Shown here piece by piece: positions 1-60,878 of a stretch of 64,000 nucleotides of DNA. Where the stretch lies: contig CAVRZA010000001.1 of NCBI GenBank assembly GCA_963725665.1, positions 512,514 through 576,513 of the forward strand, in the 5' to 3' direction. Position 1 is the stretch's first letter. Every line of letters starts with the position of its first letter. Both the position numbers and the translations under genes were made by a program. The stretch comes from an uncultured Actinomycetes bacterium (GTDB taxonomy: Bacteria; Actinomycetota; Thermoleophilia; UBA2241). Below the pieces are notes generated by a model. It did not search any database and had not been told where the DNA came from. It saw only the letters and a program-made list of their open reading frames with translations.

Positions 1-633
1 ACGGACAACCTGTACTCCTACGGGCCGGTCGACGGAGCGATCACCGAGGACGCGCCGCTCGCGGCTGCGACCCGCAAGGGGCAGGTCCGGGCGGCGGTCA
101 GGAGGGACCTTCTCGCTGCGCACCGTGACGGCCGCGTGCGCGTCGTAATCACCGGGGCCTCCGACTACTACGGCCCCTTCGGCCCCAACTCGTTCGCCGG
201 CGAGCGGTTCATGAAGCAGCTGCTCGCCGGCAAGAAGGTGCAGTGGCTCGCCGACCTCGACCAGCCGCACACCGAGAACTACCTCGACGACATGGCCCGG
301 GCCATCGTCATCCTGGGGAACAGCCAGGCGGCCGAGGGCCAGGTATGGCATCTGCCGGCAGCAGAGCTGCTGACCGGTCGGCAGTTCGTCGAGCTCGCCG
401 CGCGCGCGGCGGGGATCGAGCCGAAGTCCGCGGTCTTGAGTCGCACGACGATGCGCCTCCTCGGCTTGTTCAGTCCCCTGCTGCGAGAGATCCCCGAGCT
501 GTGGTACGAGTGGGACCGGCCGTTCGTTGTGGACGCGACCAAGTTCCAGCGGGCCTACGGGCCCTTCGAGGTCACCCCTCATCAGGAAGCTCTTCAGCAG
601 ACGGTCGGCTGGTTCCGCGAGCCGTCGTCCTGA
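1..633 (+). CDS. NAD-dependent epimerase/dehydratase (atypical SDR), 5'-truncated by window edge
   Basis: Frame 1 is open from base 1: DNLYSYGP…TRKGQVRA…ASDYYGP…YLDDMARAIV, typical of this family. Confidence 0.8.
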   Translation, partial: TDNLYSYGPVDGAITEDAPLAAATRKGQVRAAVRRDLLAAHRDGRVRVVITGASDYYGPFGPNSFAGERFMKQLLAGKKVQWLADLDQPHTENYLDDMARAIVILGNSQAAEGQVWHLPAAELLTGRQFVELAARAAGIEPKSAVLSRTTMRLLGLFSPLLREIPELWYEWDRPFVVDATKFQRAYGPFEVTPHQEALQQTVGWFREPSS

Positions 634-735: not shown

Positions 736-2000
736 CTACTCGCCTGCGAACACCAGCCCCGCGATCAGCGCCGCCGCCTCCTCTTGCAGCGCCGGGATGG
801 CGTGTGAGTAGGTGTCGAGCGTGATTGAGACGGTCGCGTGCCCGAGGCGCTCGGAGACGACCTTGGGATGCACGCCGGCCTGCAGGGCCAGGGTCGCGTG
901 TGTATGGCGCAGGTCGTGCAGCCTGATCTGTGGCAACATCGCCTTCTTCACGGCCTGGCGGAAGTAGCGCGAGACGTCCTCGGGGTCCAGAGCCTCGCCG
1001 TTCTCGAGCGTGAACACGAGCCCCGATTCGACTCCGGCCTCCTCCCATTCACTCTGCTCGTCGAGCTGGCGCTGCGCCTGCGCCTTCAGGACCTCGACGG
1101 TCACTGGGTCGAGGGCAATGACGCGGCGGCCCTTGGCCGTCTTGGGTTCGCTCACCACGACCTCGTTCTTGATGGGGATGAGGGCGCGGCGCACCTAGAG
1201 CCGCGCTTTCTCGAGGTCGACGTCGCTCCAGCGCAGGCCGAGGGCCTCGCCTCGTCTCATGCCCGTCATCGCGATCAAATGCCAGAGGGGATGGAGGCGG
1301 TCGTCCTTCACTGAGTCCAAGAACGCCTTGAGCTGCTCCTTGGTCCAGGTGCGCATCTCCTTGGTGCCGTCGCCCTTCTTGCACGGTGGGTCGGCGGCGT
1401 CCAAGGGGTTCCTGGAGATGTGACCCCACCTGACGGCGTCCTTGCAGGCCTTGTGGAGACAGGCGTGGACGTGGTTGATGGTCATGGGGGAGAGGCCCTT
1501 CTTGCCGTTCTTCTTGCCGCTCTCGGCGAGCTTCGCGTAGAGGGCGTTGACCTGACTGCCGGTGAGCTTGGCCAGCTTCAGCGCACCGATGTGGGGCACG
1601 ATGTGGTAATCGACGTGCTGCACGTAGGAGTTGTAGGTCGAGGGGCGGATGGTGGCCTTTACGGCCGGCAGCCACTCCTTGGTCAGGTACTCCTTGACCG
1701 TCATCTTGGTCGGCGGCCGGTAGGTCTACTGTTCGACGGCGACGAGCAGCTTGTTCATGGCCGCCTGGCACTCCTTCTCGAGGGCAAAGCCGCCCTTGAT
1801 GGCGCGGCGGCGCTCGACGGTGTCGGTCAGCTCACCACCGCACCTTGGGCAGTTCTCTTTGGGTTTGCGCTCGACCCAGTATCGCTTCCTGCAGGCCGGG
1901 CAGCGCTGGGCGTCGTGCATGCCGATGTCGACGATGTACTCCCAAGAGCCGGGATCGCCCCGTCACGCTGCAGCACGAGCGTCTGGCCGCGCGTGCCACG
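736..2000 (-). pseudogene. Tyrosine recombinase/integrase (phage/ICE type), disrupted
   Basis: ORFs 1726-1920, 1195-1704 and 736-1194 share one frame, separated by TAG stops at 1726-1728 and 1195-1197. Motifs TGMRRGEALGLRWSD, PKT, HDLRHTHAT, LGH and LDTYSH are present. The N-terminus has CPAC…CPRC and an apparent frameshift upstream of ~1950, so the start is uncertain. Confidence 0.9.
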
Positions 2001-4078: not shown

Positions 4079-4240
4079 CTACTTGTTTGCGAACACCGGC
4101 CCCGCGATCAGCGCTGCCGCCTCCTCCGGCATTGCCGGGATGGCGCGCGAGTAGGTGTCCAGGGTGATGGAGACGGTGGCATGCCCGAGGCGCTCGCTGA
4201 CGAGCTTGGGAAGCACGCCGGCCTGCAGGGCAAGGGTGGC
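4079..4240 (-). repeat. Integrase 3'-end remnant R2
   Basis: Diverged copy of 736-900 encoding ATL.LQAG…ERLGHATVSITLDTYSRAIPA…AAALIAGPVFANK*. Confidence 0.9.
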
Positions 4241-5022: not shown

Positions 5023-5526
5023 GCTGCGAGCGGATAGACAGTCGCGCCCCTTTCCTGCCTGTCCTTTCGGGCGTACAGTGGCGCCGTCGACAAGGGGGGG
5101 CTCATGGACAACTGGATCCTGTGGGACGACCCAACGAACGAAGACCCGGTCGGTCGCGCTGCCTCCTGCGACAGGCAACTGCGGTACTACCTCGGACAGC
5201 GCGTCTTCGACTTCATCCCTGCAGCGCACGAAGATCCGGATACTACGCACACGCTGGTCGCAGGGTACATCAACCTAACGCTCAGAGAGTGGCGCTCGCT
5301 GGTCGGGCGCGACGATGGCGTGCTGACGTTCAGACAGCCGGACGACCCCTACGAGAAGACGTATATCTTAGAGATCCCAGCGGACCCCAACGTACCCGAC
5401 GACCGGGGGGAACTCAATAGAATCGCCAAAGACGCGGCCGTCCGCCGACTCTTCCGCCATGTGCAAGCGGAACTAGTGGACAGCAACTAACCCCGAGCGA
5501 GCTGGGGCGGCCGTCGGCGTTCTGGC
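5023..5526 (+). repeat. ~500-bp unit, copy 1 (copy 2 at 23690-24195)
   Basis: Near-identical sequence from gctgcg.gcggatagacag to tcggcgttctggc. Confidence 0.95.
5104..5490 (+). CDS. Hypothetical protein, 128 aa (duplicated)
   Basis: G-rich RBS; identical protein at 23772-24158. Confidence 0.7.
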   Translation: MDNWILWDDPTNEDPVGRAASCDRQLRYYLGQRVFDFIPAAHEDPDTTHTLVAGYINLTLREWRSLVGRDDGVLTFRQPDDPYEKTYILEIPADPNVPDDRGELNRIAKDAAVRRLFRHVQAELVDSN

Positions 5527-13004: not shown

Positions 13005-13790
13005 TCAGCCGACGGCCGCTACGAGCGCCGGCATGACCTCCTCCTCGTTTGCGTCATCGTCGCTCGCCTCGAGCTCGGCCGGGGGCCTCGTCAGCGCGGC
13101 CAGCGAGTCGGCGCTCATGTAGCGCCGCGCTACGGCCCACTCGTCGTCTTGTTCGGCGAGCACCATGCCGACGAGGCGCACGACGGCCTCGCGGCCGGGG
13201 AAGATGCCGACCACGTCGCTTCTGCGGCGGATCTCGCGGTTGAGACGCTCCTGGGGGTTGTTGGACCAGATCTGCCGCCAGTGGGCCAGCGGGAAGGCGG
13301 CGAAGGCGGTGATGTCGGGCGCTGCCCGCTCGAGCAGCTCGGCGGCGGCCGGGAAGCGCCTGGCGAGCTGCTCGGACACGCGCTCCAGCTGGGCCGCGAC
13401 CTCCGCGGCGGAGGGCTGCGCGAAGATGGTGCGCACCAGGGTGGCCACGAAGGGCTGGGCGCTGCGCGGCACGCGGGCCAGCAGGTTGCGCATGAAGTGC
13501 GTTCTGCACCTCTGCCAGCTGGCCCCGCTCAGGTGCGCGTCGATCGCCCGCGTGAGGCCGCGGTGATCATCGCTGATGACGAGCTGCACCCCGGCCAGGC
13601 CGCGGGAGGTGAGGCCGGCCAGGAAGTCGCTCCAGGCGGCCTCGTCCTCGCTTGTGAAGACGTCGAGGCCGAGGATCTCACGCAGGCCGTCAGCGCTGAC
13701 CGCCGTCGCGACCACGACGGCGACGCGCACGATACGCCCCTCTTCCCGCGTCTTCATGGCCAGTGCGTCGAGCCACAGGTACTCGATGTG
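13005..13790 (-). mobile_element. IS256-family transposase, 5'-truncated
   Basis: YLWLDA…REILG…LVISDDHRGL…WQRCRTHFMRN…IWSNNPQERLNREIRRR. Confidence 0.9.
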
Positions 13791-13937
13791 ACTGTCCTCA
13801 CTCAAGTGAGGTACCTGCCGGACCCCATTCATTGCTCCACTTCTTATGTTAGTCGCAGGGGCGCGACAGGTACCGTATCGCATGAAGAGTCTGCCAAGCG
13901 CGCCTAGACGCGTGGCCCACGACGCCGAGGAGGCACC

Positions 13938-14201
13938 ATGCCGACCGTAATCGGATATCACGATGTCAAGGACAAGGACCACTGGCTTGCCTCGCCAAAG
14001 CGCGAAGAGGTTTTCGGGCCCCTGGGGGTTACCAACATCCGCACGTTCGTCGACCCGGAGAAGCCAACCCGAGTAGCCGTGCTCATGGACGTTGCTGACA
14101 TGGACGCCCTCATGGCCGCGATGCAGACCGAAGCGATGGCCGAGGCCATGGCGTACGACGGCGTGCTGCCCGAAACCCTGGTGATCCTCGTCGAGGCGTA
14201 G
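13938..14201 (+). CDS. Small hypothetical protein, 87 aa (dimeric alpha/beta-barrel-like)
   Basis: GAGGAGG RBS, good codon usage; ends ~47 nt before remnant R3. Confidence 0.8.
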   Translation: MPTVIGYHDVKDKDHWLASPKREEVFGPLGVTNIRTFVDPEKPTRVAVLMDVADMDALMAAMQTEAMAEAMAYDGVLPETLVILVEA

Positions 14202-14248
14202 TTCACTTTCTCACTTGGCCAAGAGCCACTTGAACCACCCAGCTCGAG

Positions 14249-14379
14249 CTAGGTGGCGAACACCAGCCCGGCGATCAGCGCCCCCGCCTCCTCCTGCATC
14301 GCCGGGATGGCGTGCGAGTAGGTGTCGAGGGTGATCGAGACGGTGGCATGTCCGAGGCGCTCTGAGACGACCTTGGGAT
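14249..14379 (-). repeat. Integrase 3'-end remnant R3
   Basis: Encodes PKVVSERLGHATVSITLDTYSHAIPAMQEEAGALIAGLVFAT*. Confidence 0.95.
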
Positions 14380-14475
14380 CGCTGTCATGCCCGCTCGGTT
14401 ACAGCGCCCGCCCGGCAAGGGCGATCCTGAGATCGGTTTGCTCTGATCGCCTCGACCCAAAGGTGGCTCAGCACA

Positions 14476-14790
14476 TCAGCAGTTGTCTCGCTGCCGGCCT
14501 CGCTCCTGAGATGCCGCCAGGCGACAGGTCTCGCAGCAGTAGCGCTTCCTGGGGTTGTCCGTGAAGAAGAGAGAGCCGCAGAGAGGCGATGCGCAGACAG
14601 TCAGGAGCTCTCTCTTTGGATGACGCCGCGGCCGCGTCGCCAAACGTCGCGATTGCTGCGAGCGATGGAGCGCGCAGTAGAGCAGCGAGTTGTAGATGCT
14701 GAGGCGGGCTGAACAACCGGGAGCGGCGCACACGCGTCCGCTGGCGTAGGTCCGGGAAGGCGTTCCGAGAGCCACCACACGATGTCCCAT
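14476..14790 (-). CDS. Cys-rich putative zinc-binding protein
   Basis: CAAPGC…CALH and CASPLC…YCCETC; GGAGG RBS before ATG at 14790. Confidence 0.7.
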   Translation of the reverse strand: MGHRVVALGTPSRTYASGRVCAAPGCSARLSIYNSLLYCALHRSQQSRRLATRPRRHPKRELLTVCASPLCGSLFFTDNPRKRYCCETCRLAASQERGRQRDNC

Positions 14791-15037
14791 GACTGCAAGA
14801 CCTCCTCGTATCCGTGACCTCTTCGCTTGAAGAGGACGTCCCGAGAACATGGTTCGGCAGGGCGTCGGACCGCCGTGAGCCGGATAGACGGATATCCCAG
14901 GCGCTTGCGAGCCTCGCTTTCGCTTAGGATCCGGTCACCTCAGGCGGCATGGCAGCTGCGAATGCGGATGAGCGGGTCCTTCAGATGGCGCGCGCCGAGC
15001 CCTAGCCAGACCTGCCCTCTTGTCGCGCCTCGGCCTA

Positions 15038-15490
15038 TCAGGCCATGTAGTGCGGCGGGCCGTAACTGTCGGACTCGTCGCGCTCGACGAGCGACTCTCC
15101 GCTGCGGTGCAGGTAGCCTTTGCGGACTTCGCCATCGACGATCGCCTTGTGCTCTGCTTTCGAGTGACGGTGATGTCCATGAAGGTCGGTCTCGATGAAC
15201 TCCTTGAAGCGGGCCAAGTCGTGCGCCAGCCGCGCACTGGCGAGCTGTTCCTTGGCGCCCACGTCGGGGGCGCCACCGGGTTCGTAGAGGAACTGCACGC
15301 GGACCGTCGTTCTGCCCTCCGCGAGCTGCTCGTAGGCTACGGTCTCGTGCTTGGCCATGATCTCGCAGCTCCAGGCGTCACAGAGCAGCTTGTAGTTGCC
15401 GACGAGGACCCACTCGGTGAAGCGAGCCCACTCCGCGCGGGCTACCTCGGGCGAAACGTCCACGTCCACTGCTTGTTGGATGGAAACCAT
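15038..15490 (-). CDS. SRPBCC/cyclase-like protein
   Basis: SIQQAVDVDV…W..F at the start and DLARFKEFIE at the end are typical of SRPBCC; GGAGG RBS. Confidence 0.65.
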   Translation of the reverse strand: MVSIQQAVDVDVSPEVARAEWARFTEWVLVGNYKLLCDAWSCEIMAKHETVAYEQLAEGRTTVRVQFLYEPGGAPDVGAKEQLASARLAHDLARFKEFIETDLHGHHRHSKAEHKAIVDGEVRKGYLHRSGESLVERDESDSYGPPHYMA

Positions 15491-15604
15491 GCCTCCACCT
15501 TCCATCCGAGTGCTCCCAACCGGGAGTTGAGAGGGCTATTCCCGAGGCGCAACGGGAGGAATCTGACCGAGCGTTTGAGGGTGCCCCGCTTCGGTGGACA
15601 GTCT

Positions 15605-15673
15605 CGGGTTTGCGTGCGACTAGATGTCGAGCGTGGTCGAGACGGTGGCGTGGCCGAGTCGCTCTGAGACCAC
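15605..15673 (-). repeat. Integrase 3'-end remnant R4 (short, degenerate)
   Basis: Encodes VVSERLGHATVSTTLDI*. Confidence 0.85.
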
Positions 15674-15796
15674 GGTTCCATGTGAGCGATTGCGTGCGAT
15701 GGCCGGGAGTCGTGCGCACCCGATGCGCCCTGGCCGTCTCAGTCCCTCCCAGCCGGCAATCTTCTCCTTGTCCATCAACGCGGGAGGAGGCAGACC

Positions 15797-16550
15797 ATGT
15801 CGCACGTGATCTCACGAGACGGCACGAAGATCGCCTACGAGCAGACCGGTGAGGGCGAGGCGGTTCTGCTGATCGACGGGGCGCTGGGTTCACGGTCGTT
15901 CGGGTTCATGCCGCGACTGGCCGTGATCCTGGCGCCGCACTTCAGCGTCAAGACCTACGATCGTCGTGGCCGGGGCGAAAGTGGCGACACGCCGCCCTAA
16001 GCCGTCGCCCGCGAGGTCGAAGACATCGAGGCGCTCATCGGGCAAGCCGGAGATGCCGCGTCCCTCTTCGGCATCTCCTCGGGCGCGGCCCTCGGCCTGG
16101 AGGCGGCTCTCGGGCTCGGCGAGAAGGTCAAGTCGGTCGCCATGTACGAGCCGCCTTACAACGCCGAGGACGCGCAACTCTGGAGGGACTACGGACGGCG
16201 GCTCAGGGAGCTGCTGGCGGCGGGTCGCCGAGGCAGTGCGGTCGCGCTCTTCATGGCGTTCGTCGGTGTTCCGGCCGAGCAGATCGCGACGATGCGTGAG
16301 ACGCCCTTGTGGTCGATGCTCGAAGCCGTGGCACCGACGCTTGCCTATGACGAATCCGTTCTGGGGATGGACCGCGCCGTGCCTACCGCACGGGCGGCGG
16401 ATCCTGAGGGCGCCGGCGCTCGTGATGAACGGCGGCGAGAGCTACCCGTTCATGCGCGACACGGCAAGAGCCCTGGCGGACAGCATCCCGGCGGGGCGCT
16501 ATCACGAGCTCGAAGGCCAGCGTCACGACGTGGCCGTGGAGGCCCTGGCA
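15797..16550 (+). pseudogene. Alpha/beta hydrolase, disrupted
   Basis: SRDGTKIAY, YDRRGRGESGD, G.SSGA, MYEPP; in-frame TAA at 15998-16000, frameshift near 16400, 3' end lost. Confidence 0.85.
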
Positions 16551-16559
16551 CCCGGCCGG

Positions 16560-16872
16560 CCGACTCCGATCCCTACCACGACGCACCGACGATCATCCTG
16601 GTGCTCGCCGATCAGACCAAGGTCACGCCCGTCGAGGACGCAAGCCTCGCCCTGGGCAACATGTTCAACGCCGCCTACTCCCTGGGTCTGGGCTCCTGTT
16701 GGGTGCACCGTGAAAGGCAGATGTTCGCCAGCGACCAAGGCCAGGCGCTGCTCAAGAAGTGGGGCGTGGAGGGTGACTACGTCGTGTGGGGGCCTGCGTC
16801 CTCGGTTACCCCGAGGGCGAACACCCGCAGGCGGCCCCGCGCAAGGACGGTTCTGTGGTGATGGTGAGGTAG
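16560..16872 (+). pseudogene. Nitroreductase C-terminal fragment
   Basis: PYHDAPTIILV…EDASLALGNMFNAAYSLGLGSCWVHR…LGYP; directly joined to the hydrolase remnant. Confidence 0.8.
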
Positions 16873-16915
16873 CGTACTCAGCGCTCGCGCGCGACGATCC
16901 TTTTCTAGGCTCGAC

Positions 16916-17172
16916 CTACTTAGCTGCGAAGACCAGTTCGGCGATTCTCGTCGCCGCCTCTTCTTGCATCGCCGGGATGGCGTGCGAGTGAGTGTCGAGC
17001 GGATTGCGACGGTGACGTGCCCGAGGCGCTCGGAGACGACCGTGGGATGTACGCCCGCTTGCAGAGCAAGGGTGGCGTGGGCGTGCCGCAGGTCATGCGG
17101 CCTGATCTGCGGCAGCATCGCCTTCTTCTCTGCCCGTCGGAAGTGGCGCGTGACTGTCTCCGGGTCGAGCGC
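16916..17172 (-). repeat. Integrase 3'-end remnant R5 (longest)
   Basis: ALDPETVTRHFRRA…MLPQIRPHDLRHAHATLALQAGVHP…, then after a frameshift AIPAMQEEAATRIAELVFAAK*. Confidence 0.95.
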
Positions 17173-17223
17173 GCTGGTGTTCTTGACGGACGCCGCCACA
17201 CCCTGCGTTTGAGCCCGTTATTA

Positions 17224-17628
17224 TCACATAGCGGCGATGTTGACGATGTTGTCCTCGCTGTCCTTGAACCAGGCTGCCTTGGTGCCCTCGAACTCGGCGA
17301 TGCCGTTCACGGTCTTGAGTCCGATCTCGGGCAAGTCATAGTCCTCGAACGTCACACCCTTGGCTCGCAGATCGGCGGCGACCTCATCGAACTTGTCGCG
17401 GGGTAGGCCGAAACCCAAGGCCGTGCTCTGCGGTGCCGGCATGCCGGGGCGTTCATAGATCATGACCATGGTGCCATCGCCCGCCGTGAACATGGCCATG
17501 CCCTCGCTCGCGGGACCGGGGACGTCGCCCGGCCTGAGGCCCAACACGTCGGTGTAGAACTTCTTGGCGCGACCAAGGTCCTCGGCCCGCAGCACAGCTG
17601 CAGCCGGGTGGTCCCCGAGACTAGCCAT
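17224..17628 (-). CDS. VOC (glyoxalase/bleomycin resistance) family protein
   Basis: DLGRAKKFYTDVLGL…LRAKGVTFEDYD…AWFKDSEDNI. Confidence 0.85.
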   Translation of the reverse strand: MASLGDHPAAAVLRAEDLGRAKKFYTDVLGLRPGDVPGPASEGMAMFTAGDGTMVMIYERPGMPAPQSTALGFGLPRDKFDEVAADLRAKGVTFEDYDLPEIGLKTVNGIAEFEGTKAAWFKDSEDNIVNIAAM

Positions 17629-17815
17629 CATGCACATCCTCTCTCTCGCCTCATCGGTCACTCCCATGACTTCCCCCGTCCCCGCGTGGGAAAGCGGATT
17701 GTCGTTTGCGCTCGCTCGCGCACGCGGGTGACGCGGGCGTCGCAAGGGGCACAGTGGCGGGCGCACGCAGGACGTTGGTTTCGAGTCCAAGGGCAGGCGC
17801 TCGACGTGCAACCGT

Positions 17816-17929
17816 CTAGTTCCCCGCGAACACCAGCCCCGCGATCAGCGCCGCCGCCTCCTCCTGCATCGCCGGGATGGCGTGCGAGTAGGTGTCGAGG
17901 GTGATCGCGACGGTGGCGTGTCCGGGGCG
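17816..17929 (-). repeat. Integrase 3'-end remnant R6
   Basis: RPGHATVAITLDTYSHAIPAMQEEAAALIAGLVFAGN*. Confidence 0.95.
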
Positions 17930-18030
17930 AATCGCCACGGGCATCCCCTGTGATGGCGTCTTCACCGGCCTGTCGGACGCCGGATTGGGGGAGAACACTG
18001 CAAGACAGGGACTGAGGAGGTGTCGCGCGC

Positions 18031-18474
18031 ATGGCTCGTCTGGTGGGAATCAATCACGTAGCGCTCGAAGTCGCAGACGTCGGCGAGGCCCTTGACTGGT
18101 ACGGGCGCTTCTTCTCCTTCGATTTGCGTGGCAGAGTCGGCTCGAGGGCGGCCTTCATCGACATGGGCGACCAGTTCCTCGCGCTCATGGCGGGACGTAC
18201 GCAGCCCCCCGACGCGGTAAGGCACGTCGGGCTGGTGGTCGACGATAAGGAAGCTGTGCGACGGCAGCTCAGGCGGGAGGGCATAAGCGTGCAGGAATCC
18301 GGATCTCTGGACTTCACAGATCCCTGGGGTAACCACGTGCAGGTCGTCGACTACCGCGAGATCCAGTTCACGAAGGCCCCGTCGGTGCTGCGCGGCATGG
18401 GGCTCGAGGAGCTTGGCAAGACCGAGCAGGCGCTCGATGAGCTGCGCAAGAAGGGACTCGCCCGTGAGCCATAG
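18031..18474 (+). CDS. VOC family protein
   Basis: GINHVALEVAD…HVGLVVDD…DPWGNHVQVV. Confidence 0.9.
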   Translation: MARLVGINHVALEVADVGEALDWYGRFFSFDLRGRVGSRAAFIDMGDQFLALMAGRTQPPDAVRHVGLVVDDKEAVRRQLRREGISVQESGSLDFTDPWGNHVQVVDYREIQFTKAPSVLRGMGLEELGKTEQALDELRKKGLAREP

Positions 18475-18517
18475 CGGACTGAGGAGTCCGTGGCGGAACG
18501 AACCTCTCTGGGCTCAC

Positions 18518-18694
18518 CTACTCGCCTGCGAACACCAGCCGCGCGATCAGTGCCGCCGCCTCCTCCTGCATCGCCGGAATGGCGTGCGAGTAGGTGTCGA
18601 GCGTGATCGAGACAGTCGCCGTGTCCGAGACGTTCGCTGACGACCTTCGGGTGAACACCGGATGCAGGGCGAGGGTGGCGTGGGTGTGGCGTAG
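18518..18694 (-). repeat. Integrase 3'-end remnant R7
   Basis: LRHTHATLAL…HPKVVSERLGH…ITLDTYSHAIPAMQEEAAALIA.LVFAGE*, with small indels. Confidence 0.95.
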
Positions 18695-18939
18695 ACCGCC
18701 GTCACTCCCGCAGTGGTCGGGCTGGGACCCTCGTCGCAGTGGGCCCGGGCGGGTGCCAGGCCGGCGGCGACCGATAGCGCCGCTGCGAAGCCTCTGGTCA
18801 GCCGCCTCGGGGGGTGCGGCGGGTGCCCTATGCCCTGGCCGGGGGAATAGATAGTTGCACGGTCAAATGGCCGTGGCGTCGTGGCCGGCGAGAACAGTCT
18901 CGGCGGCGGACGCGTCCAGTCGCCAACGAGGACTATGCC

Positions 18940-19233
18940 ATGCCCGCACTCACCTCCCCGAAGACCTTCGACTGCGAGATCTGCAGCGCGGTCCTGAAGT
19001 CGCAGCGGGACCTCGACAACCATATGTGCTTGCTTCACGACGACTGCGGTGAGGCACGGCTCGGCACCCCGATCACGTTTCGCTGCGCCACCTGCGGGGA
19101 GGCCTTCGCGCGCCGCGGCGACCTGTATGCTCACCTGCGCCAGCGCCGCCACGGACACCCCGCCGAGTGGGATATGGCGCGTCCGCCGGGTGCGCAGCGC
19201 CTGCGCGGCCGGCCTGGGCGTCGCAGCGGCTGA
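18940..19233 (+). CDS. Protein with two C2H2-type zinc fingers
   Basis: FDCEICSAVLKSQRDLDNHMCLLH and FRCATCGEAFARRGDLYAHLRQRRH. Confidence 0.75.
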   Translation: MPALTSPKTFDCEICSAVLKSQRDLDNHMCLLHDDCGEARLGTPITFRCATCGEAFARRGDLYAHLRQRRHGHPAEWDMARPPGAQRLRGRPGRRSG

Positions 19234-19316
19234 CGGCCGGTCTCTGCTGTCAGCCAGTAGCGGCGGCTGACGCTCCCGATCATGCGCGGCGCCATGCTCC
19301 TTCGCGGCGCCCCCGC

Positions 19317-19460
19317 CTGTTTCGTCGCGACCAACAGCCCGGCGATCAGTGCCGCCGCCTCCTCCTGCAGCGCCGGGACGGCGTGCGAGTAGGTGTCGAG
19401 GGTGATGGAAACGGTGGCGTGACCGAGACGCTCCGAGACCACCTTGGGGTGGATGCCCGC
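19317..19460 (-). repeat. Integrase 3'-end remnant R8
   Basis: AGIHPKVVSERLGHATVSITLDTYSHAVPALQEEAAALIAGLLVATK. Confidence 0.95.
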
Positions 19461-19648
19461 GTGTGCGCCACGTGCAACGTGGTTCGAAGATAAGTAAGCC
19501 GCTTTGCAGGGAAGACTAATTTCACCAAGGACGCCGACATGACGGCCCTCAAAATAGCCGCGCGGGGAAGCTGATGTTGGCGAGATGAGTGCAGTATCCA
19601 CTCCGAGGGCTCAAAGCGGCCAGCGGAGAGCGAGGAAGGTGACTCACC

Positions 19649-20086
19649 ATGCGAGAGACCAGGCCCAAATGGATGCGTAGCAGCAAGGGCACACCGTTCA
19701 CGGGCATAGGCTCCCTGGAGGCCGACATCCTGGCCATCGTCTGGGAGAAGGACCGCGTCACCGTGCGCGACGTCTACGAGACCCTGCGCGAGCGGCGTCC
19801 GATCGCCTATACGACCGTGATGACTGTCATGAACAACCTGGTGAAGAAGAACCTGCTGGCCCAGGACAAGACGAACATCGCCTACGTCTACACGCCCGCC
19901 ATCCCCGGCGCTGAGGTGGCGCAGACGATCCTCGACAGCGTCGTCAATCGTCTGTTGGGCGGGCACGCGAACGTCGCGGTCTCGCATCTTCTGGGGCTGC
20001 GCACGACCCTGACGGCGGAGCAGACTGCCGGCCTCAAGCGTTACGCCGAGGAGCATCTCCAGGGCGATAAGCCACTTGCGGCCTAA
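19649..20086 (+). CDS. BlaI/MecI/CopY family transcriptional regulator
   Basis: GSLEADILAIVW…TVRDVYE…AYTTVMTVMNNLVKK. Confidence 0.9.
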   Translation: MRETRPKWMRSSKGTPFTGIGSLEADILAIVWEKDRVTVRDVYETLRERRPIAYTTVMTVMNNLVKKNLLAQDKTNIAYVYTPAIPGAEVAQTILDSVVNRLLGGHANVAVSHLLGLRTTLTAEQTAGLKRYAEEHLQGDKPLAA

Positions 20087-20212
20087 AGGCGAGCCTGCGC
20101 TTCACGAACGTGGGGGTCACCCGCATGCAGCACGGGATGGCAGGGGACAACGGGCGCGACCGACACCCACCGTTCTTCAGGGGGAAGCAGGTAAGGACTT
20201 GCGCCGGCGCGC

Positions 20213-20542
20213 CTACTCCACCCCGATCAGGATGTCGTCGCCCTCGACCTTGACGGGGTACGACTTGACGTCGTCCGTCTTCCCCCGGACCAACAGGACC
20301 TTGGGGCCGAGCATGTTCTTGCCCGTCCGGACGTCGAATCTGGACCCGTGACGGGGACAGGTGACGATCCCGTCCTTGATGGTCCCCTGCGACAGGGTGC
20401 CGCCCCGGTGCGTGCACGTGTCCGAGATCGCGTAGAGGCTGCCCTCGAGGTTGGCCACGAGTATGGCGCCGCCGCCGTGCTCCACTCTCAGGACGCTCCC
20501 CGGAGGGATGTCGGAGATGCGAGCCGTCTTCACGAATTCCAT
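20213..20542 (-). CDS. Rieske [2Fe-2S] ferredoxin
   Basis: CTHRG…CPRHGSRFD. Confidence 0.9.
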   Translation of the reverse strand: MEFVKTARISDIPPGSVLRVEHGGGAILVANLEGSLYAISDTCTHRGGTLSQGTIKDGIVTCPRHGSRFDVRTGKNMLGPKVLLVRGKTDDVKSYPVKVEGDDILIGVE

Positions 20543-20702
20543 GGGCCACCTCCCGCACACTTCCGGCGCTGACTGTCTCCGCGCCGGCACCACGTCATCA
20601 TACCCGCGCGTTCTCGATCGACGGTAGGGCAGCGAACGACCGCGGCCAGTTGTGCTCCCGGCGGTTCGCCGTCGAGTCGACGGCCGAGGCCGGCGTTGTC
20701 GT

Positions 20703-20821
20703 CTATCTGGCCGCAAAGACCAGCTCCGCGATCCTGGCCGCCGCCTCTTCCTGCGTCGCCGGGATGGCGTCGAGCGCCCGGGCCATGCCGGCGTCTCGAT
20801 CACCCTCGATACCTACTCGCA
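20703..20821. repeat. Integrase 3'-end remnant R9 with internal ~50-bp inversion
   Basis: 20703-20770 on minus encodes AIPATQEEAAARIAELVFAAR*; 20771-20821 on plus encodes ERPGHAGVSITLDTYS. Confidence 0.9.
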
Positions 20822-21059: not shown

Positions 21060-22238
<1,179 letters not shown>

Positions 22239-22678
22239 CCCCCGTCGCGGAGATCACATGCCGGCGCTGCCTGGTTTCATGGGGGGAGTGTCCGTGGCGG
22301 TGGGGGAAAACCCTCGTGAGGCCTCTCCCAGTCTACGCTCCCTGAGGCCGAGCACAAGGAGGGCAGTGAGACCGGCAGCGACAGCGAGAAGCGCCGCGGT
22401 TGTACCTAGCTGTCACTCGACGAATGAGAGGCGCTCTGGGATCCCCTGTGGTTTCACTCACCCGGCATTGGCTCGTCGCCGCGCCACCTGGCCGAGAACG
22501 CCGACGCCATTCGCCAAGACTGGCCCCGCATCCCTCTCCTGGGTCTCAGCCGATGCCCCCCTCGCCTCCGCCGACCTCGACCGCCGTGTCGTGGCGCTGC
22601 TTGACATCCAATCTCCGGTGGTCGGGGTCAGTTGGAGTAAGGCATCCATCCCGCGCGTAAGTAGCGCCGACATGGGAA

Positions 22679-22715
22679 GCGCCCGCCGGGCCGGCTTGGC
22701 CGGCCCGGCGGGCGC
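22679..22715 (-). terminator. Hairpin downstream of csp
   Basis: gcgcccgccgggccggc-ttg-gccggcccggcgggcgc. Confidence 0.55.
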
Positions 22716-22728
22716 GCACGAGCTTGCG

Positions 22729-22926
22729 TCAGACGGGCTTCACGTTGACGGCCTGCGGGCCCTTCTGGCCCTCAGTCACGTCGAACTCGACGGCCTGGCC
22801 CTCAGCAAGCGTCCCGACTCCCGGGGCAAGCTCGTTGGCGTGCACGAACACGTCCTTGCCCTCTTCCTGCTCGATGAAGCCGTAGCCCTTCTGTACGCTG
22901 AACCATTTCACTTTGCCTTGAGCCAC
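22729..22926 (-). CDS. Cold-shock protein
   Basis: [27 protein letters not shown]. Confidence 0.95.
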
Positions 22927-23109
22927 CTTGTACTCCTCGTCTCATGAGCGTGTCCGCGGCGACTGTCGAGGCAACGATGCGCGCTCTTCTCCGATGCGCT
23001 GCTTACGACGGATGTCACAGCGCAACCAGCTGCCTCACTGTACGCTCTCTCCGCCTTCGGGGGAATCGGGTATCGGCAAAGGGGGCCGACGGCAGAGGAA
23101 GCGACGGCC

Positions 23110-23414
23110 TCAGCGTGGACGGCGACGGCCGCGTCTGTCGACCCCGCTGCCGGTCATGACATAGGGCAGCAGCGCCATCTCGCGGGCGCGCTTGATGGCG
23201 AGGGCGACCTGGCGCTGATGGCGCCGGCAGGAGCCAGTGGTGCGCGGCGGCTTGATCTTGCCCTTGTCGTTGATGAAGCGGCGCAGGACGGTGGAGTCCT
23301 TGTAGTCGACCTCGTCGATCTTCTCCTTGCAGAAGTGGCAGTAGCGACGGCGTGAGGGGTCCAAGGGACGGTCCCTCTTCTTCTCGGGCCGCGACTTGCC
23401 TTGCGGCTCGGCAT
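23110..23414 (-). pseudogene. rpsR: 30S ribosomal protein S18 (Zn-binding type), start codon out of frame
   Basis: RRRYCHFC…VDYKD…LRRFI…GKI…C.RHQRQVALAIKRAREMALLPY. The RBS plus ATG at 23414 is in another frame, consistent with a 1-nt indel (mutation or sequencing error). Confidence 0.85.
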
Positions 23415-23689: not shown

Positions 23690-24195
23690 GCTGCGGGCGG
23701 ATAGACAGTCGCGCCCCTTTCCTGCCTGTCCTTTCGGGCGTACAGTGGCGCCGTCGACAAAGGGGGGGGTCATGGACAACTGGATCCTGTGGGACGACCC
23801 AACGAACGAAGACCCGGTCGGTCGCGCTGCCTCCTGCGACAGGCAACTGCGGTACTACCTCGGACAGCGCGTCTTCGACTTCATCCCTGCAGCGCACGAA
23901 GATCCGGATACTACGCACACGCTGGTCGCAGGGTACATCAACCTAACGCTCAGAGAGTGGCGCTCGCTGGTCGGGCGCGACGATGGCGTGCTGACGTTCA
24001 GACAGCCGGACGACCCCTACGAGAAGACGTATATCTTAGAGATCCCAGCGGACCCCAACGTACCCGACGACCGGGGGGAACTCAATAGAATCGCCAAAGA
24101 CGCGGCCGTCCGCCGACTCTTCCGCCATGTGCAAGCGGAACTAGTGGACAGCAACTAACCCCGAGCGAGCTGGGGCGGCCTATCGGCGTTCTGGC
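23690..24195 (+). repeat. ~500-bp unit, copy 2
   Basis: Near-identical to 5023-5526. Confidence 0.95.
23772..24158 (+). CDS. Hypothetical protein, 128 aa (duplicate of 5104-5490)
   Basis: Identical translation MDNWILWDD…ELVDSN. Confidence 0.7.
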   Translation: MDNWILWDDPTNEDPVGRAASCDRQLRYYLGQRVFDFIPAAHEDPDTTHTLVAGYINLTLREWRSLVGRDDGVLTFRQPDDPYEKTYILEIPADPNVPDDRGELNRIAKDAAVRRLFRHVQAELVDSN

Positions 24196-36897: not shown

Positions 36898-37033
36898 CTG
36901 TCGGCGAACGCCAGCTCCGCAATCAGCGCCGCCGCCTCCTCCTGCATCGCCGGGATGGCGTGCGAGTAGGTGTCGAGCGTGATCGCGACGGTGGCGGGGG
37001 CGAGGCGCTCGGAGACGACCTTGGGGTCGATGC
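36898..37033 (-). repeat. Integrase 3'-end remnant R10
   Basis: PKVVSERLAPATVAITLDTYSHAIPAMQEEAAALIAELAFAD. Confidence 0.95.
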
Positions 37034-37073
37034 GCTGCCCCAGCCTTGCTGTGGTCGCGCCTTGACGTGATGT

Positions 37074-37705: not shown

Positions 37706-38086
37706 GTGCCTCAAGGTACAGTCAAATGGTTCTCGACCCAGAAGGGCTACGGGTTCATCACGCAGGATGAGGGCGGCGACATCTTCGTCCATATCACCGG
37801 CCTCGCCCCCGGCACGACCGGCCTCGACGAGAACCAGCGCGTCGAGTTCGAGCTGAGCGAGGGTCGCAGGGGCCCGCAGGCGACCAACGTCAAGCCGCCA
37901 GCCGCCGAAAAGGCGGCCCACGACGAGCCGCCGGCCGCCGAAGAGGCGACCCACGACGAGCCGCCGGCCGCCGAAGAGGCGACCCACGACGAGCCGCCGG
38001 CCGTCGAAGAAGCGACCCACGACGAGCCGCCGGCCGTCGAAGAAGCGACCCACGACGAGCCGCCGGCCGCCGAAGACGAAGAGTAG
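37706..38086 (+). CDS. Cold-shock protein with acidic repeat tail
   Basis: GTVKWF…KGYGFI…IFVH…GPQATNV followed by (EPPAAEEATHD)n. Confidence 0.9.
   Translation: MPQGTVKWFSTQKGYGFITQDEGGDIFVHITGLAPGTTGLDENQRVEFELSEGRRGPQATNVKPPAAEKAAHDEPPAAEEATHDEPPAAEEATHDEPPAVEEATHDEPPAVEEATHDEPPAAEDEE
37892..38076 (+). repeat. 33-bp coding tandem repeat, ~5.5 copies
   Basis: gagccgccggccg(c/t)cgaaga(g/a)gcgacccacgac units, head to tail. Confidence 0.95.
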
Positions 38087-38103
38087 AGCGCGCGTCGAGG
38101 GCA

Positions 38104-38129
38104 GCGGGGTGGCTTTCGGGCCACCCCGC
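38104..38129 (+). terminator. Hairpin after csp
   Basis: gcggggtggc-tttcgg-gccaccccgc. Confidence 0.55.
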
Positions 38130-45384: not shown

Positions 45385-45411
45385 TACCCCTCTCGCGAGT
45401 CCTGCCAAACC
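45385..45411 (-). promoter_or_regulatory. SigB/SigF-type promoter candidate
   Basis: Minus strand GGTTT-N17-GGGTA, ~56 nt upstream of ATG at 45328. Confidence 0.5.
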
Positions 45412-45488
45412 AGCACGACTCACGTACGAGGACTACGGTAACCGGCTCCAAAGGCCGTCGCACAGCCTCATGGCGATAGGGAGACGCG

Positions 45489-45521
45489 CACCAGCCCCGT
45501 GATCAGCGTCGCCGCCTCGTC
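45489..45521 (-). repeat. Integrase 3'-end remnant R11 (very short)
   Basis: caccagccccgtgatcagcgtcgccgcctcgtc encodes DEAATLITGLV. Confidence 0.6.
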
Positions 45522-45867
45522 TGGAGGCCGCACCCTGGTTTGTCTCAGGCCTTCTCGTGGCAGTGCTTCCGAATGCGAGGAGATGCGGAGATGGCGACGC
45601 GACACGGGCACGCAACGCGGCACGAAAGCGCAGGCCTTGCCGGTCGGCCGCACGAGCCCGCTCCGGTCCCTGCCCGCAACCTTCAAGTCTACGACGCGGT
45701 TCTGGGGCCGTCCGACTGTCTCGTTGATCGCCCCTTCAGCGACCCCGGGGAGACGGTCGGCGACGCGCTCGTCATGGCCGACATGCTGGCGCGCGAACGC
45801 GTCGTCGCTCGGACATGGCCGCGCGGCGGTCAGGGGCCCGGAATCAGCGAGAAGACCGTGGCGGGCA

Positions 45868-47582
45868 GATTGGTTTTTGGTCGTGTAAAACGCGTCAAAG
45901 ATCTTGCCCAGCTTGTCGGGAGGAATGCCCATTCCGGAATCTCGACCCATACTTTGACGGCGGAATTGCCATTCAGCGCGGCCTTGATCGACATTTTTCC
46001 CGCGCCTGGTTCGCAGGTCTGCATGGCATCGATTGCGTTCATCGCAAGGTTCAAAATGACCTGCTGGAGATGATGTGATCGCCGCGGACGACAAAGCGGC
46101 CGATCTCCTGATCCGCGACGAGCCCGATTCCTTCTTAAATGCCTCGGGCCCCACGATCTGAAGGGTGTCGTGAACGACCTCGCCAAGATCGATTTCCTCC
46201 AGTTCATCTTCGCTTTTTTTCTTCAACAGCGCGCGCAGGTGGCTGATGATCTGCGCGGCGCGCTCATTGTCCCGAAGAATATTGGAAAGTATCTGTTCGG
46301 CCCTTGCGACGTTCTCGGGGGATCAGCGCCGAGATAAAGCATTGCTGCCTCAGCGTAGCTCTGGATGGCACCGAGAGGTTGATTTAACTCGTGCGCGATG
46401 GAGGCCGACAAAGTCCCGGCGACGGCAGTGCGGTTCAAATGAATGACTTCCAGTAGCCGGTCGCGCAACTCTAATTCTGCGGCCTGGCGGCGGCGTCGCT
46501 CAATAATCAATCCCCCGATCACGGCGGCCTGCGCGAGCACGATGATCGCAATCGAAATTATCTGCCAATGGTACTGTTCCCAGAGATCAAATTGATGAAA
46601 TTGGATATCGCTGTCCGATGGCAGCCGGGACGTGCTCAGCTCCACCGCTTGATCGGTCGTTCGTCGAGTCGATACATTTGAGGTGGGAATTGTTTGGCGA
46701 GGAACTGTAGCAAGATTATTGCTCGACAGAAGTTTCAATGCGGATCCGCCGTCGCTGCACCCTCCTCGTTTTCCCAACTGTCCATATATCCGCCTACGAT
46801 TTCCACGCCCAAATAGCTGCTGATTGGCGAATAAACGGGCGCGGGCGAAATCGTTGCGACACTTGCAGCTACTTCGGGCGGGACACGCGCCCGCCCGGTG
46901 CGATCGACGAAAACAAACGACATGACTGCAATCGGATCTTTCGGCAGCTGCGAGACTTGTTTTAGCATCTCATCGTATGGAAGACCTTCAATGTAATTGA
47001 TTGTATAGCGGTCGCTATATGGTTGCAGCTCGCGGCGCGCATCATCCAACCATTGTCGGTCGTAGTCACTCGCTCCACCGATGACGGCAACATTGCGGGC
47101 TTTCGGTTGAAGCTGCCGTGCCAGCTCCAGCTCCCCAAAACTGTATTCTGTAGCGACAAAAAAGGTCGTCGAAGTGGTCTGTCTTTGTGACCTCCCTTGC
47201 GGGCACATTGGCAATGATGGTTCGGACGTTCGGAGCGAGAGCACTGCGGTTCTGGCCAAGAACGGAATTGCGGCGCGGCCCAGTGCGATCAGTATATCGG
47301 GCGGGGCTTCCTGGTATACTTTCCGGCAAGATATTCAGCCGTTTGATCGATATGCCTTTGGCTTGGAAGCCGCACCAGCTCCATGTAGTCGATAAATATC
47401 TCGAAACGCTCCGTCGTCTTTTCGCTGAGGCGCTGTTTGAATGCCTCAATGGTGCGCATAGCGGCCGGCTGGTTGGGTGAAAGGCTTTCCAGAAAAGAGA
47501 TTCGTCGCAGCTGCGTCTCCGCGGCCGAAACACCAATCGTGGCCGCGATCAGAAGGGCGAAGGATGTCAAACCCGCGCGCAT
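45868..47582 (-). pseudogene. Sensor histidine kinase (alphaproteobacterial type), multiply frameshifted and 3'-truncated
   Basis: Pieces in several frames: periplasmic domain, TM, SIAHELNQPL, LQQVILNLAMNA, DSGMGIP…IFDAFYTTK; the G2 box is missing. Confidence 0.85.
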
Positions 47583-47970
47583 CCAGTTCGCTTTCGAAAA
47601 AGGCTACACACTGAAAAAGCGCCGTACACGTCTGCCTGACGGCGAGAGTATTCACTGTAACGTTGTCTTAGTTGCACCAAAACCAGCCCCGACCACCTTA
47701 CTAGCAACACGAGCGTTTCGGAGTGTCTTCGACCCAAATCGCTCCCACGACAAAAGGCACGAGTGGGCATTACGGCCTTGAATTAGGGCGGCTGCGAGCC
47801 GAATACCACGAACTAATCACGAACATGTGACGGACCGGGCTGCCTCAAAGGGAAGTTTCGGACAGCGGTCTTTTTCGGCAGGTTGATGCCGTAGGGAGCG
47901 CGTACTTCCGATCAATTCTGCTGCGCAACCTGAAGGCAATGCGAACAACGACAGCTCGGAAAGGTCTGCC

Positions 47971-49677: not shown

Positions 49678-49818
49678 GGTCAATTTGCCAAAGACGGTCG
49701 CGCGAGCGAGCCGACGAGTTGGCCTGACCGATACGAATAGAAGACGTTGCCGGGCTATCCAAAAAGACCGCCCGGCAGCCGACGGTGCTGGCCCACTCAT
49801 GACCAAAATGGAGTGTTT

Positions 49819-50532
49819 ATGATGCCTCGAGCCACGCCTGTTTCTGCGATCTTCTTTGCGGTTCTATTTACGTCAGTCACTGCGATCGCACAGACGGCAC
49901 CAAGTCCCCAACCCGGGTCAACGCCCGCGTTAAAGGCTATTGGCGCATCCACCTCGGCCAAACCGGAGATGGAACCGTCGTTGATTGTCTTAAATTCGCA
50001 CGGCGCAACTCTGCAAGGCGACAAGCTCACGCTCACCGGCATTTCGCCTAACGCAATCGTGTTCGCCGATCGGCCGATACGGGCCGCCGGGCACGCGCTT
50101 ACCGCTCACCTCCTGGAGGAGTGGGCGAGCGGCGATAGTTTCGGCAAGGATCCACCAAATGCGACGGTTTCGGCACTTAGTAAGGATGCTTCAACGAACC
50201 GCGATGCGGTCGTCGTATTGAAGTCGCCCAAGCTCGACGGTGACAAGCTGACTTTCGACGTGCAGGTCCTCGAAGGAAACCTGAACGGCACAGATGGTCC
50301 GGCTGCCGTATTCATCGATATCATCGGGCTACCGTTCACGCCGCTTTCGTATGCCGGCGTCGCCCGTCGTACAGCGCGTCGCGCTGCATGGTATGGCGCT
50401 GCTGGAGCCTATGGCGCGGCAGCCGCTTATGGTGCGGCGGCGGCCTACCGCGCAGCCGCTTACGGGTATCCACCGCCGCCTTACTACGCTCGCCCTGCGT
50501 GCGGTTATTACCCTTACCCGCCTTGCTACTGA
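49819..50532 (+). CDS. Secreted hypothetical protein
   Basis: Signal peptide; FADRP, PPNAT; PLSYAGVARRTARR tail. Confidence 0.8.
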   Translation: MMPRATPVSAIFFAVLFTSVTAIAQTAPSPQPGSTPALKAIGASTSAKPEMEPSLIVLNSHGATLQGDKLTLTGISPNAIVFADRPIRAAGHALTAHLLEEWASGDSFGKDPPNATVSALSKDASTNRDAVVVLKSPKLDGDKLTFDVQVLEGNLNGTDGPAAVFIDIIGLPFTPLSYAGVARRTARRAAWYGAAGAYGAAAAYGAAAAYRAAAYGYPPPPYYARPACGYYPYPPCY

Positions 50533-50578
50533 GGCGCCCGATACAGCGCGATTACATCTCACGGGAGAATTTCATCCG

Positions 50579-51061: not shown

Positions 51062-51146
51062 ACGCAAAAGTCTACGAGAACTTGTGCAAGCGCTTTCGTC
51101 GTTAATTTTATTTTAGAGCGAGCTGCAACTCGAATTGGGGGACACG

Positions 51147-51872: not shown

Positions 51873-51944
51873 GCGCGCGAAATCGCCATTTGCGGCAATT
51901 ACCCCGTCGTCCCGGACGTTCAAAAGAATTTTGGGAGAAATCGT

Positions 51945-52666: not shown

Positions 52667-52697
52667 CGAGTCGTATTTGCGGTTTGTGATGGAGACA

Positions 52698-53120: not shown

Positions 53121-53163
53121 TATCCGTGAAAGCAAGGTCTGCCGGTGGAATAAGGCGCGACGG

Positions 53164-53427: not shown

Positions 53428-53447
53428 GGCTTGGCCCCCGAATGTTG

Positions 53448-53684: not shown

Positions 53685-53793
53685 TTGATCCTCCTCTTCT
53701 GGTAAGCGGTTTATTGCTCCTGTGTTCACTCGCCGCGGCAATGGCCAGCTTTGCAAACGGTGGTTCCGCCTTGAGATCCACTGCGTTGGGTAC

Positions 53794-60824: not shown

Positions 60825-60830
60825 TCGCAT

Positions 60831-60862: not shown

Positions 60863-60878
60863 TGATTGAGACCGTTTT

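Follow-up and report, generated by a model that had tools for sequence, protein, structure and literature searches.

A one-directional array of integrase gene 3′-ends bounding small accessory genes in an uncultured Thermoleophilia bacterium

A direct repeat recurs in one orientation through a 64,000-nucleotide (nt) stretch of the genome of an uncultured Thermoleophilia bacterium (the window; positions 512514-576513 of contig C1 of genome G000, which comprises 3.73 Mb in 12 contigs at 68% GC). Unlike the attC of integrons, which is non-coding, the repeat is coding sequence, the 3′-end of a gene for a phage-type tyrosine integrase. We put at about 60% the probability that the array arose by tandem site-specific accretion at an attachment (att) site in the 3′-end of the integrase gene, followed by decay into cassettes without an integrase. 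An earlier reading of the same letters (the original prediction) had taken a dense core of repeats to be integron-like, the unit being a gene plus a site. The unit was well recognized, as the repeats do bound one- and two-gene units in a one-directional, reordered array; the integron identity was not. The array is integron-like in outcome and is not an integron.

Positions given without a prefix are those of the window, C1:n denotes contig positions, and L-numbers denote loci from relatives or metagenomes. Copies of the repeat were located by direct-repeat detection (families D1, D2, and D4), tblastn (the query being the integrase translation with X at both stops), blastn and an nhmmer profile of the core; copies with nhmmer E<1e-10 are called strong. 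Genes for the geometry and the Pfam scans were called by a crude in-house caller based on codon usage, and tRNA genes were located with ARAGORN.

The direct-repeat copies begin at 730, 4073, 14240, 15605, 16910, 17810, 18512, 19311, 20697, and 36888. The dense core (14.2-20.8 kb) has the seven copies originally counted, at spacings of 1365, 1305, 900, 702, 799, and 1386 nt (~0.7-1.4 kb had been claimed). Together with one weak candidate, the copies are:

737..1800, minus strand: full-length integrase pseudogene with two in-frame TAG codons, the repeat copy being its last codons (translation, codon check, Pfam PF14659 + PF00589)
4080..4240, minus strand: integrase 3′ stub (tblastn, nhmmer)
14250..14379, minus strand: integrase 3′ stub, core 14250-14326 (nhmmer, C1:526763-526839), integrase-like to ~14379 (tblastn, residues 312-352)
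15605..15673, minus strand: internal integrase fragment, about residues 311-343, without the terminal core (blastn, query 40-108; tblastn; alignment)
16917..17202, minus strand: integrase 3′ stub, about residues 260-352 (Pfam Phage_integrase on the reading frame 16777-17199; tblastn; nhmmer)
17817..17938, minus strand: integrase 3′ stub, its upstream flank common to the copies at C1:499050 and C1:503422 (tblastn, alignment, self-blast, nhmmer)
18519..18694, minus strand: integrase 3′ stub, forming with the VOC gene on its low side a duplicated block 93% identical to C1:499903-500597 (tblastn, self-blast, nhmmer)
19320..19493, minus strand: integrase 3′ stub (tblastn, nhmmer)
20704..20821, minus strand: minimal stub, core 20704-20770, head-to-head with an inverted integrase-like piece, 20771-20821 (blastn, nhmmer)
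36898..37067, minus strand: integrase 3′ stub, the last strong copy of the array (tblastn, nhmmer)
45489..45522, minus strand: tentative weak minimal core, 31 of 34 nt matching, at the edge of a high-GC block (direct-repeat family D6; nhmmer E=6.8e-4; context)

The copies at 737 and 4080 bracket 3.3 kb, a unit in which the integrase is paired with an ammonium transporter. At the junction 20770/20771 a plus-strand integrase-like piece (20771-20821) meets the minus-strand minimal site (20704-20770; blastn, both strands), which would not be a product of simple site-specific inversion.

Read on the minus strand, the repeat encodes the last 15-90 residues of the integrase (…LDTYSHAIPAMQEEAAALIAGLVFA…stop), and the translations of the copies run to …ITLDTYSHAIPAMQEEAAALIAGLVFA, followed by two or three variable residues and the stop. 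Two open reading frames (ORFs) that end in a repeat match Pfam Phage_integrase, ORF 16777-17199 (minus strand) over profile positions 102-160 of 172, and ORF 736-1194 (minus strand) over positions 55-168. Just upstream of the latter, ORF 1195-1704 has the N-terminal SAM-like domain. Since the two ORFs together hold the C-terminal and N-terminal domains, copy 737-1800 is a whole integrase gene. The reading frame is kept across an alignment of 29 copies, where many of the differences are synonymous, and the catalytic motifs of tyrosine recombinases (RRGEAL, HDLRHTHA, and LGHATV..LDTYSH) are visible in the translations, which match PF00589. The attC-type site of the original prediction therefore gives way to an integrase coding end without a significant hairpin: single-strand folding of four copies on both strands (eight folds) gave z from +0.08 to -1.7, none significant. 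There were no Rfam matches at gathering thresholds in 93.5 kb of the array, and the site has no similarity to tRNA-Arg(CCT) (best local score 9).

The anatomy of the site was read from the 29 aligned copies and from more than 100 anchored nhmmer profile hits in G000 and its relatives. Common to all copies are the last 35-66 nt of the ORF, which comprise GAGGCGGCGGCGCTGATCGCGGGGCTGGTGTTCGC, two or three variable codons and TAG, and which sit just past the catalytic tyrosine codon. The downstream edge is sharp: homology stops at …GGTGTTCGC, and is followed by 6-7 variable bases and, in most copies, TAG. In 18 full-length genes, codon positions 1 and 2 are highly conserved up to GLVFA, and conservation then collapses from 0.87 to 0.38. 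The upstream edge of the integrase remnant varies continuously between about -25 and +38 (profile coordinates): some copies extend into the integrase body, and others break off at scattered positions. One group of copies ends just before …CGCACGCC/ATCCCGG (profile start 9-15), five copies are only GAGGCGGCGGCGCTGATCGCGGGGCTGGTGTTCGC and the tail (profile start 33-38), and minimal copies in several genomes retain just the core. From this anatomy, the att core would lie inside the integrase frame, just after the catalytic tyrosine, and each insertion would swap only the last few codons.

The dense core accounts for only a small fraction of the array, which starts 39 kb upstream of the window. 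Contig C1 has 26 strong copies and one weak copy, all on the minus strand (tblastn, blastn, and nhmmer agree). The strong copies span C1:473075 to C1:549487 (~76 kb), and the weak copy at C1:558002 extends the span to ~85 kb. Outside the array, only six further copies are found in the rest of the 3.7-Mb genome. The array holds two full-length integrase copies (737-1800 and C1:478166-479307) and one half copy (C1:483850-484329). About 24 copies are 3′-terminal stubs, in which the core is preceded by roughly 0-220 nt of integrase sequence. Pieces without the terminal core, all internal, number only two or three, and neither tblastn nor blastn revealed an N-terminal integrase fragment among the array copies.

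Similar arrays are found in relatives, the closest public records being uncultured Thermoleophilia metagenome-assembled genomes. A 125-nt site query matches 22 of 41 genomes (G000 included), among them 17 of the 24 within the same family; five genomes (G001, G004, G008, G011, and G024) have from 15 to at least 21 site matches each. The strand is uniform within each relative locus examined (e.g., 8/8, 6/6, 5/5), with one exception in L086 (nhmmer). In G024:C1 an uninterrupted integrase frame of 484 residues heads the array, and eight same-strand fragments follow over the next 62 kb downstream. In G014:C1 and G024:C4 the integrase adjoins an excisionase-family gene (HTH_17), that of G014 scoring near the cut-off of TIGR01764 (28.5 vs. 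28.8). A DnaB/AAA_25 helicase-like gene is present in G014, an SSB gene in G024:C4, and ParB/DNA-methylase genes in both. The G014 unit, ~22 kb long, is bracketed by a half-integrase site and the site of the full integrase; it also has defence- or conflict-type genes at L016:9802-14255 (T5orf172/DUF4041, an Imm8 immunity protein, and an RHS-repeat fragment). Across the array, G000 and its relatives share almost no synteny apart from the integrase, the sites, and a few cassettes.

The arrays also share a neighbor. Six genomes of five genera have an array or a solitary site at a distance of 1.1-4.4 kb from the gene for tRNA-Arg(CCT), toward which the integrase reading direction points. The distances from the tRNA gene (ARAGORN) to the terminal site are:

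G003: 1.1 kb
G015: 1.9 kb
G012: 1.9 kb
G024:C4: 2.7 kb
G014: 3.5 kb
G000: 4.4 kb

The only site match in G012 is a solitary 40-nt minimal site (core, tail, and TAG) at the tRNA-Arg(CCT) locus with no integrase nearby, which may represent either an unoccupied docking site or a scar. Between it and the tRNA gene is a SIR2-like gene.

A repeated element of ~280 nt is also found in the arrays, at C1:495543-495816 (L002:11543-11816) and C1:503763-503989 and in the arrays of G024, G010, and G003. It matches the tRNA-Arg(CCT) region at C1:468529-468791, via the G012 locus, and a plus-strand integrase fragment of a second family lies at C1:467465-467779. The element is probably an att remnant of that second integrase family, targeting tRNA-Arg(CCT).

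The units have been reordered, with junctions inside the site. Units of G000 recur in the metagenome contig L104, 92-96% identical in nucleotides but differently ordered: an epimerase-like gene, site, VOC gene, site, cupin gene, an ORF of 87 residues, and site. The G000 counterparts are at -404..633, 18031, C1:500793, and 13938, up to tens of kb apart. L104 has four sites, all on the expected strand, two of which flank the VOC gene, 134 nt before it and 50 nt after it. At its junction J1 the contig follows the 737 copy through the tail and then the 17823 copy; the switch falls, and the exchange would fall, within a 36-nt block identical in both parents, GAGGAGGCGGCGGCGCTGATCGCGGGGCTGGTGTTC (coding strand), which is the minimal core. 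Another clue to the exchange point is the pair C1:498205 and 14256, which suggests a position after ...GCGCTGAT. In G000 itself, the site at C1:500420 is a mosaic: its high side (core, integrase remnant, and cupin gene) is that of C1:473081, and its low side (tail and VOC gene) that of 18516. A small inverted repeat around GCC-ATCCC-GGCG was also considered as the core and was rejected, being without support from J1.

In the accretion that we favor, the 3′-end of the integrase gene would serve as the attachment site of that same integrase. The mobile units of the family would range from 3 kb (integrase and one gene) up to ~22 kb, with excisionase and helicase. Site-specific recombination would join each of them to the tail of an integrase copy already resident, and the primary site on the chromosome would lie 1-4 kb from tRNA-Arg(CCT). 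Each insertion would restore the integrase frame with a new tail and leave behind one more tail stub, so building a one-directional tandem array. Deletions would then strip the integrase bodies, leaving one- and two-gene units flanked by sites, equivalent to cis-mobilizable elements (CIMEs), and recombination between sites would duplicate, delete, and reorder the cassette-like units. This explanation is supported by the fact that the fragments are almost all 3′-terminal, a non-random outcome. It also draws support from the coding identity of the repeat, the extent of the array, the arrays and units of the relatives, the tRNA-Arg(CCT) anchor, the junctions, and the minimal copies reduced to the core. 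We infer that the integrase catalyses these events, and likewise the position of strand exchange and the circular intermediates.

Several observations weigh against this explanation. Every close integrase copy in G000 is broken by in-frame TAG codons or frameshifts, and as a consequence the G000 array may now be a fossil, although some of the frameshifts may be errors of long-read assembly. The continuous upstream edge of the remnants fits random deletion and not a fixed exchange point. In the 18 full-length genes, conservation of third codon positions within the site (0.77 and 0.69) does not clearly exceed that elsewhere (0.44-0.83), so that no constraint at the DNA level beyond coding is shown. 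At junction J0 of L104, mismatches inside the core place the exchange, at face value, further upstream than at J1. If all mismatches are real, the two exchange intervals do not overlap, as would be the outcome of homologous recombination between repeats. Junction J3 lies outside the sites altogether and is a deletion at a microhomology. The duplicated units of G000 are colinear at an offset of 27-35 kb, and therefore one old segmental duplication could explain them. When homologs of the VOC cargo were looked up, as the original prediction had proposed, only the closest (95% identical, in L104) was found next to the site; the repeat is absent from 79 of the 80 metagenome loci that encode VOC homologs (65-95% identity). 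Finally, neither circles nor empty sites are found in the short Logan contigs of four public runs, in which small shares of the stretch (0.08-0.14) are represented; these contigs show only repeats joined to repeats and, at 17816-17826, a variety of loose ends.

Of the other explanations, a true cassette-capture platform fares best. Here the units without an integrase would be small circles, each with one integrase-tail site, captured and excised singly by a resident integrase at its own 3′-end. It would account naturally for the many tiny units (520-900 nt from site to site in the window and L021/L024), the minimal sites without any integrase remnant (profile starts 9-15 and 33-38), the different cassette order in relatives 92-96% identical, the uninterrupted integrase at the head of the G024:C1 array, and a cargo resembling that of integrons (VOC, cupin, SnoaL, and YCII). 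However, the continuum of remnant lengths and the units with a whole integrase point to descent from integrase-bearing elements, and J3 shows ordinary decay at work. With neither circles in the Logan contigs nor sites beside the cargo homologs at 79 of 80 loci, we regard such a platform as rather unlikely. A bolder version, which we advance only tentatively since we would bet against it, is that Thermoleophilia have a second, independently evolved cassette-capture system, in which a lambda-type integrase uses the last ~40 nt of its own frame as docking site and cassette site alike. It would capture, stack, and reorder one-gene circles without an integrase beside tRNA-Arg(CCT), each capture rewriting the C-terminal tail.

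Still less probable is that site-specific recombination has no part in the array now, and had none in the making of most of it. Related elements would have gathered at a hotspot and their integrases decayed, the rest being RecA-dependent unequal crossing-over between tails of 60-160 nt. The colinear duplicates do look like a tandem segmental duplication with its junction in the site, and the non-coinciding exchange intervals, the broken G000 integrases and the lack of extra synonymous-site conservation all agree with this possibility. However, random decay should leave N-terminal and internal pieces as often as 3′-pieces, which is far from the ~24 terminal stubs vs. 2-3 others observed, and homologous exchange could neither create new stubs nor import new cargo. 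The copies differ by 10-25%, and are therefore not recent duplicates of one another. Moreover, the same tRNA-linked locus has, in several genera, solitary minimal sites and minimal copies 35-45 nt long.

A classical integron, with an IntI integrase and attC-flanked cassettes, hardly deserves consideration in spite of the integron-like cargo and the small cassettes in one direction (27 of 27 contig hits on one strand, dense-core spacings of 0.7-1.4 kb), because the repeat is coding sequence without a significant hairpin, the integrases of two relatives with uninterrupted genes score 41.5 and 43 bits with the integron-integrase model TIGR02249 (cut-off 265) and 28.9 and 26.2 with NF011946 (cut-off 435), and the stubs follow the integrase 3′-end in the same orientation instead of lying upstream of a divergently transcribed intI as an attI arrangement would have them.

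The outcome is nevertheless shared with integrons: a one-directional stack of small, mostly single-gene accessory units beside a tyrosine recombinase, reordered between close relatives. The differences are that the array has no IntI signature and no folded attC; its site is a double-strand coding sequence at the recombinase's own 3′-end, its cargo mostly converges on the site, and many of its stubs retain integrase remnants.

Staphylococcal cassette chromosomes (SCC, SCCmec) offer another likeness, as several cassettes, some without recombinase genes, can be stacked at the 3′-end of one gene with short direct repeats of that end between them; tycheposon islands lie at tRNA genes in Prochlorococcus. 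In both cases the target is a housekeeping or tRNA gene, not a recombinase gene, and the recombinases are of other families. The composite SCC/SCCmec islands are located at the rlmH 3′-end (PMC13739063).

The accretion that we favor has its closest precedent in integrative elements. For ICESt1 and ICESt3 of Streptococcus thermophilus, tandem site-specific accretion at the fda 3′-end and decay to CIMEs have been described (PMC5704250). As in that account, the units are bordered by direct repeats that include the target gene's 3′-end (29-copy alignment, nhmmer census), units without an integrase retain both att sites, and growth is in one direction. Some units in our set have an integrase (with an excisionase in G014 and G024:C4), and others lack it but have both sites. 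The new element is that the repeated gene end is the end of the element family's own integrase gene. The array is also far longer (26 sites, 76 kb), and mostly of one- and two-gene units. In addition, and unlike in accreting integrative and conjugative or mobilizable elements, conjugation or mobilization genes (relaxase, coupling protein, type IV secretion system, FtsK-like Tra) are absent from the Pfam matches of the units examined, which rest on crude gene calls.

A review describes integrases whose own gene contains the att site as known exclusively from archaea, where integration splits and inactivates the gene (PMC8371274). As in these “suicidal” SSV-type integrases of the same account, the att site here would lie within the integrase frame, in a compact module of integrase and site: by the anatomy of the repeat, the shared sequence is the last 35-66 nt and homology ends 2-3 codons before the stop. 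The SSV-type enzymes carry PF16795 and target tRNA genes according to that review (PMC8371274), whereas the present ones are bacterial and carry PF14659 and PF00589. Nor is there an Int(N)/Int(C) split here: the stubs begin after or near the tyrosine codon, and full copies keep all domains. Because the site comes after the catalytic tyrosine, only the last 19 codons or fewer would be swapped and the gene would not be split. The system would thus be a bacterial, non-disruptive counterpart of the archaeal integrases.

Our literature search, whose coverage excluded subscription journals and supplements, found no description of arrays of integrase 3′-ends. It also turned up no integron in Thermoleophilia. 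To our knowledge, integrons are scarce in Actinomycetota generally, and for these reasons the assembly of small accessory genes in these soil bacteria is poorly understood. An att site in the recombinase's own 3′-codons would make a very compact self-targeting module, able to build hypervariable regions of 76 kb. It would also explain why these genomes contain dozens of “pseudogene” integrase tails, which annotation pipelines would pass over. Should the integrase prove active on a ~40-bp site, it would provide a new and simply defined recombination tool, and a new model for cassette systems arising from decaying mobile elements.

The cargo genes in and beside the dense core, with an insertion sequence (IS) that has entered the array, are:

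13005..13982, minus strand: Mutator-family transposase, IS inserted in the array (Pfam)
13938..14201, plus strand: ORF of 87 residues without a family match, also beside a site in L104 (ORF list, Pfam, L104 comparison)
16142..16861, plus strand: ORF with a nitroreductase piece (Pfam)
17224..17811, minus strand: VOC/glyoxalase-family gene (Pfam)
18031..18474, plus strand: VOC/glyoxalase-family gene, with paralogs at C1:499933-500376 and (truncated) C1:503xxx (Pfam, self-blast)
18814..19233, plus strand: C2H2 zinc-finger protein (Pfam)
19649..20086, plus strand: BlaI/Penicillinase_R-family repressor (Pfam)
20213..20803, minus strand: Rieske [2Fe-2S] protein (Pfam)

Pfam thus bears out the nitroreductase piece, both VOC genes, the C2H2 finger, BlaI and Rieske of the original prediction. 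The “Zn protein,” “SRPBCC,” and “hydrolase” are unconfirmed, because the eight ORFs tested between 13938 and 16991 have no credible Pfam match at E<=5 (one, 14476-14850, scores 7.7 bits at E 4.1). The C2H2 ORF (18814-19233) matches the eukaryote-type zinc finger PF00096 at E=4e-8, in a bacterial ORF borne as a cassette. Over all units, the cargo recognized by Pfam includes VOC (3), cupin (2), and SnoaL (3) genes, YCII, a zinc ribbon, and the C2H2, BlaI, Rieske, and nitroreductase genes just listed. Further units contain zinc-type dehydrogenases, arginase-family proteins, an FAD/BBE oxidase, MFS and GNAT proteins, an ammonium transporter, a 2-oxoacid:ferredoxin oxidoreductase cluster, and giant WD40 and beta-propeller proteins.

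The placing of the cargo genes is not random. Of 61 called cargo genes, 43 are on the plus strand, opposite to the integrase strand; the minus-strand genes that had been pointed out in some intervals are real, and a minority (18 of 61). A called gene lies within 300 nt on the low-coordinate side of 20 of the 26 sites on the contig, and in 17 of the 20 it is on the plus strand, i.e., convergent on the repeat (binomial p=0.0026 against 0.5, but only 0.12 against the array-wide plus bias of 43:18). The median gap from convergent gene to repeat is 56 nt. Over all 26 sites, the median gap is 99 nt, and none of 5000 random placements of the sites in non-genic space gave one as small, which answers in the affirmative the test of stop-to-repeat distances against a null that the original prediction had suggested. 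Of the plus-strand stops it had named, 633, 14201, 18474, 19233, and 36863 are right, while 16872 should be 16861 and 4001 should be 4032. The geometry would follow from a circular unit in which cargo and integrase form a convergent pair with the site between their ends: in circular permutation the ammonium transporter and the integrase of sites 737/4080 are convergent, and gene stops accordingly abut the integrase stop.

The neighborhood of the array has other features of interest. A direct repeat of 506 nt, 99% identical (5023-5526 and 23690-24195), brackets 18.7 kb that include the dense core and also a sigma-70 gene, a cold-shock gene, and an S18 paralog; the ORFs within the two repeats (5104-5490 and 23745-24158) are without a Pfam match. 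These three genes, a complete sigma-70 (regions 1.1-4), the cold-shock protein, and the ribosomal protein S18 paralog, lie at 21060-23364, between two array sites. The far end of the array adjoins a znuABC-fur cluster, so that the zinc-regulon paralogs may have been part of the ancestral locus.

Toward the end of the window, at 46000-64000, the GC content falls to 55-60% (68% for the genome). Nothing comparable to the region 45400-47600, which includes a decayed histidine kinase, is present in 40 relatives apart from the site itself (33 nt), and the low-GC DNA that flanks this weak site, at 45489-45522, is likewise without a counterpart there. We considered whether that site was the 3′-end of the histidine-kinase gene, and perhaps the original target, and dropped the idea, as it lies ~300 nt beyond the decayed kinase domain. 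The low-GC end of the window may represent an island of foreign DNA or the chimeric end of a contig. Just beyond the last strong copy, six tandem repeats of 33 nt (37845-38108) encode the repeated acidic and proline-rich tail of a cold-shock-domain ORF (37706-38086).

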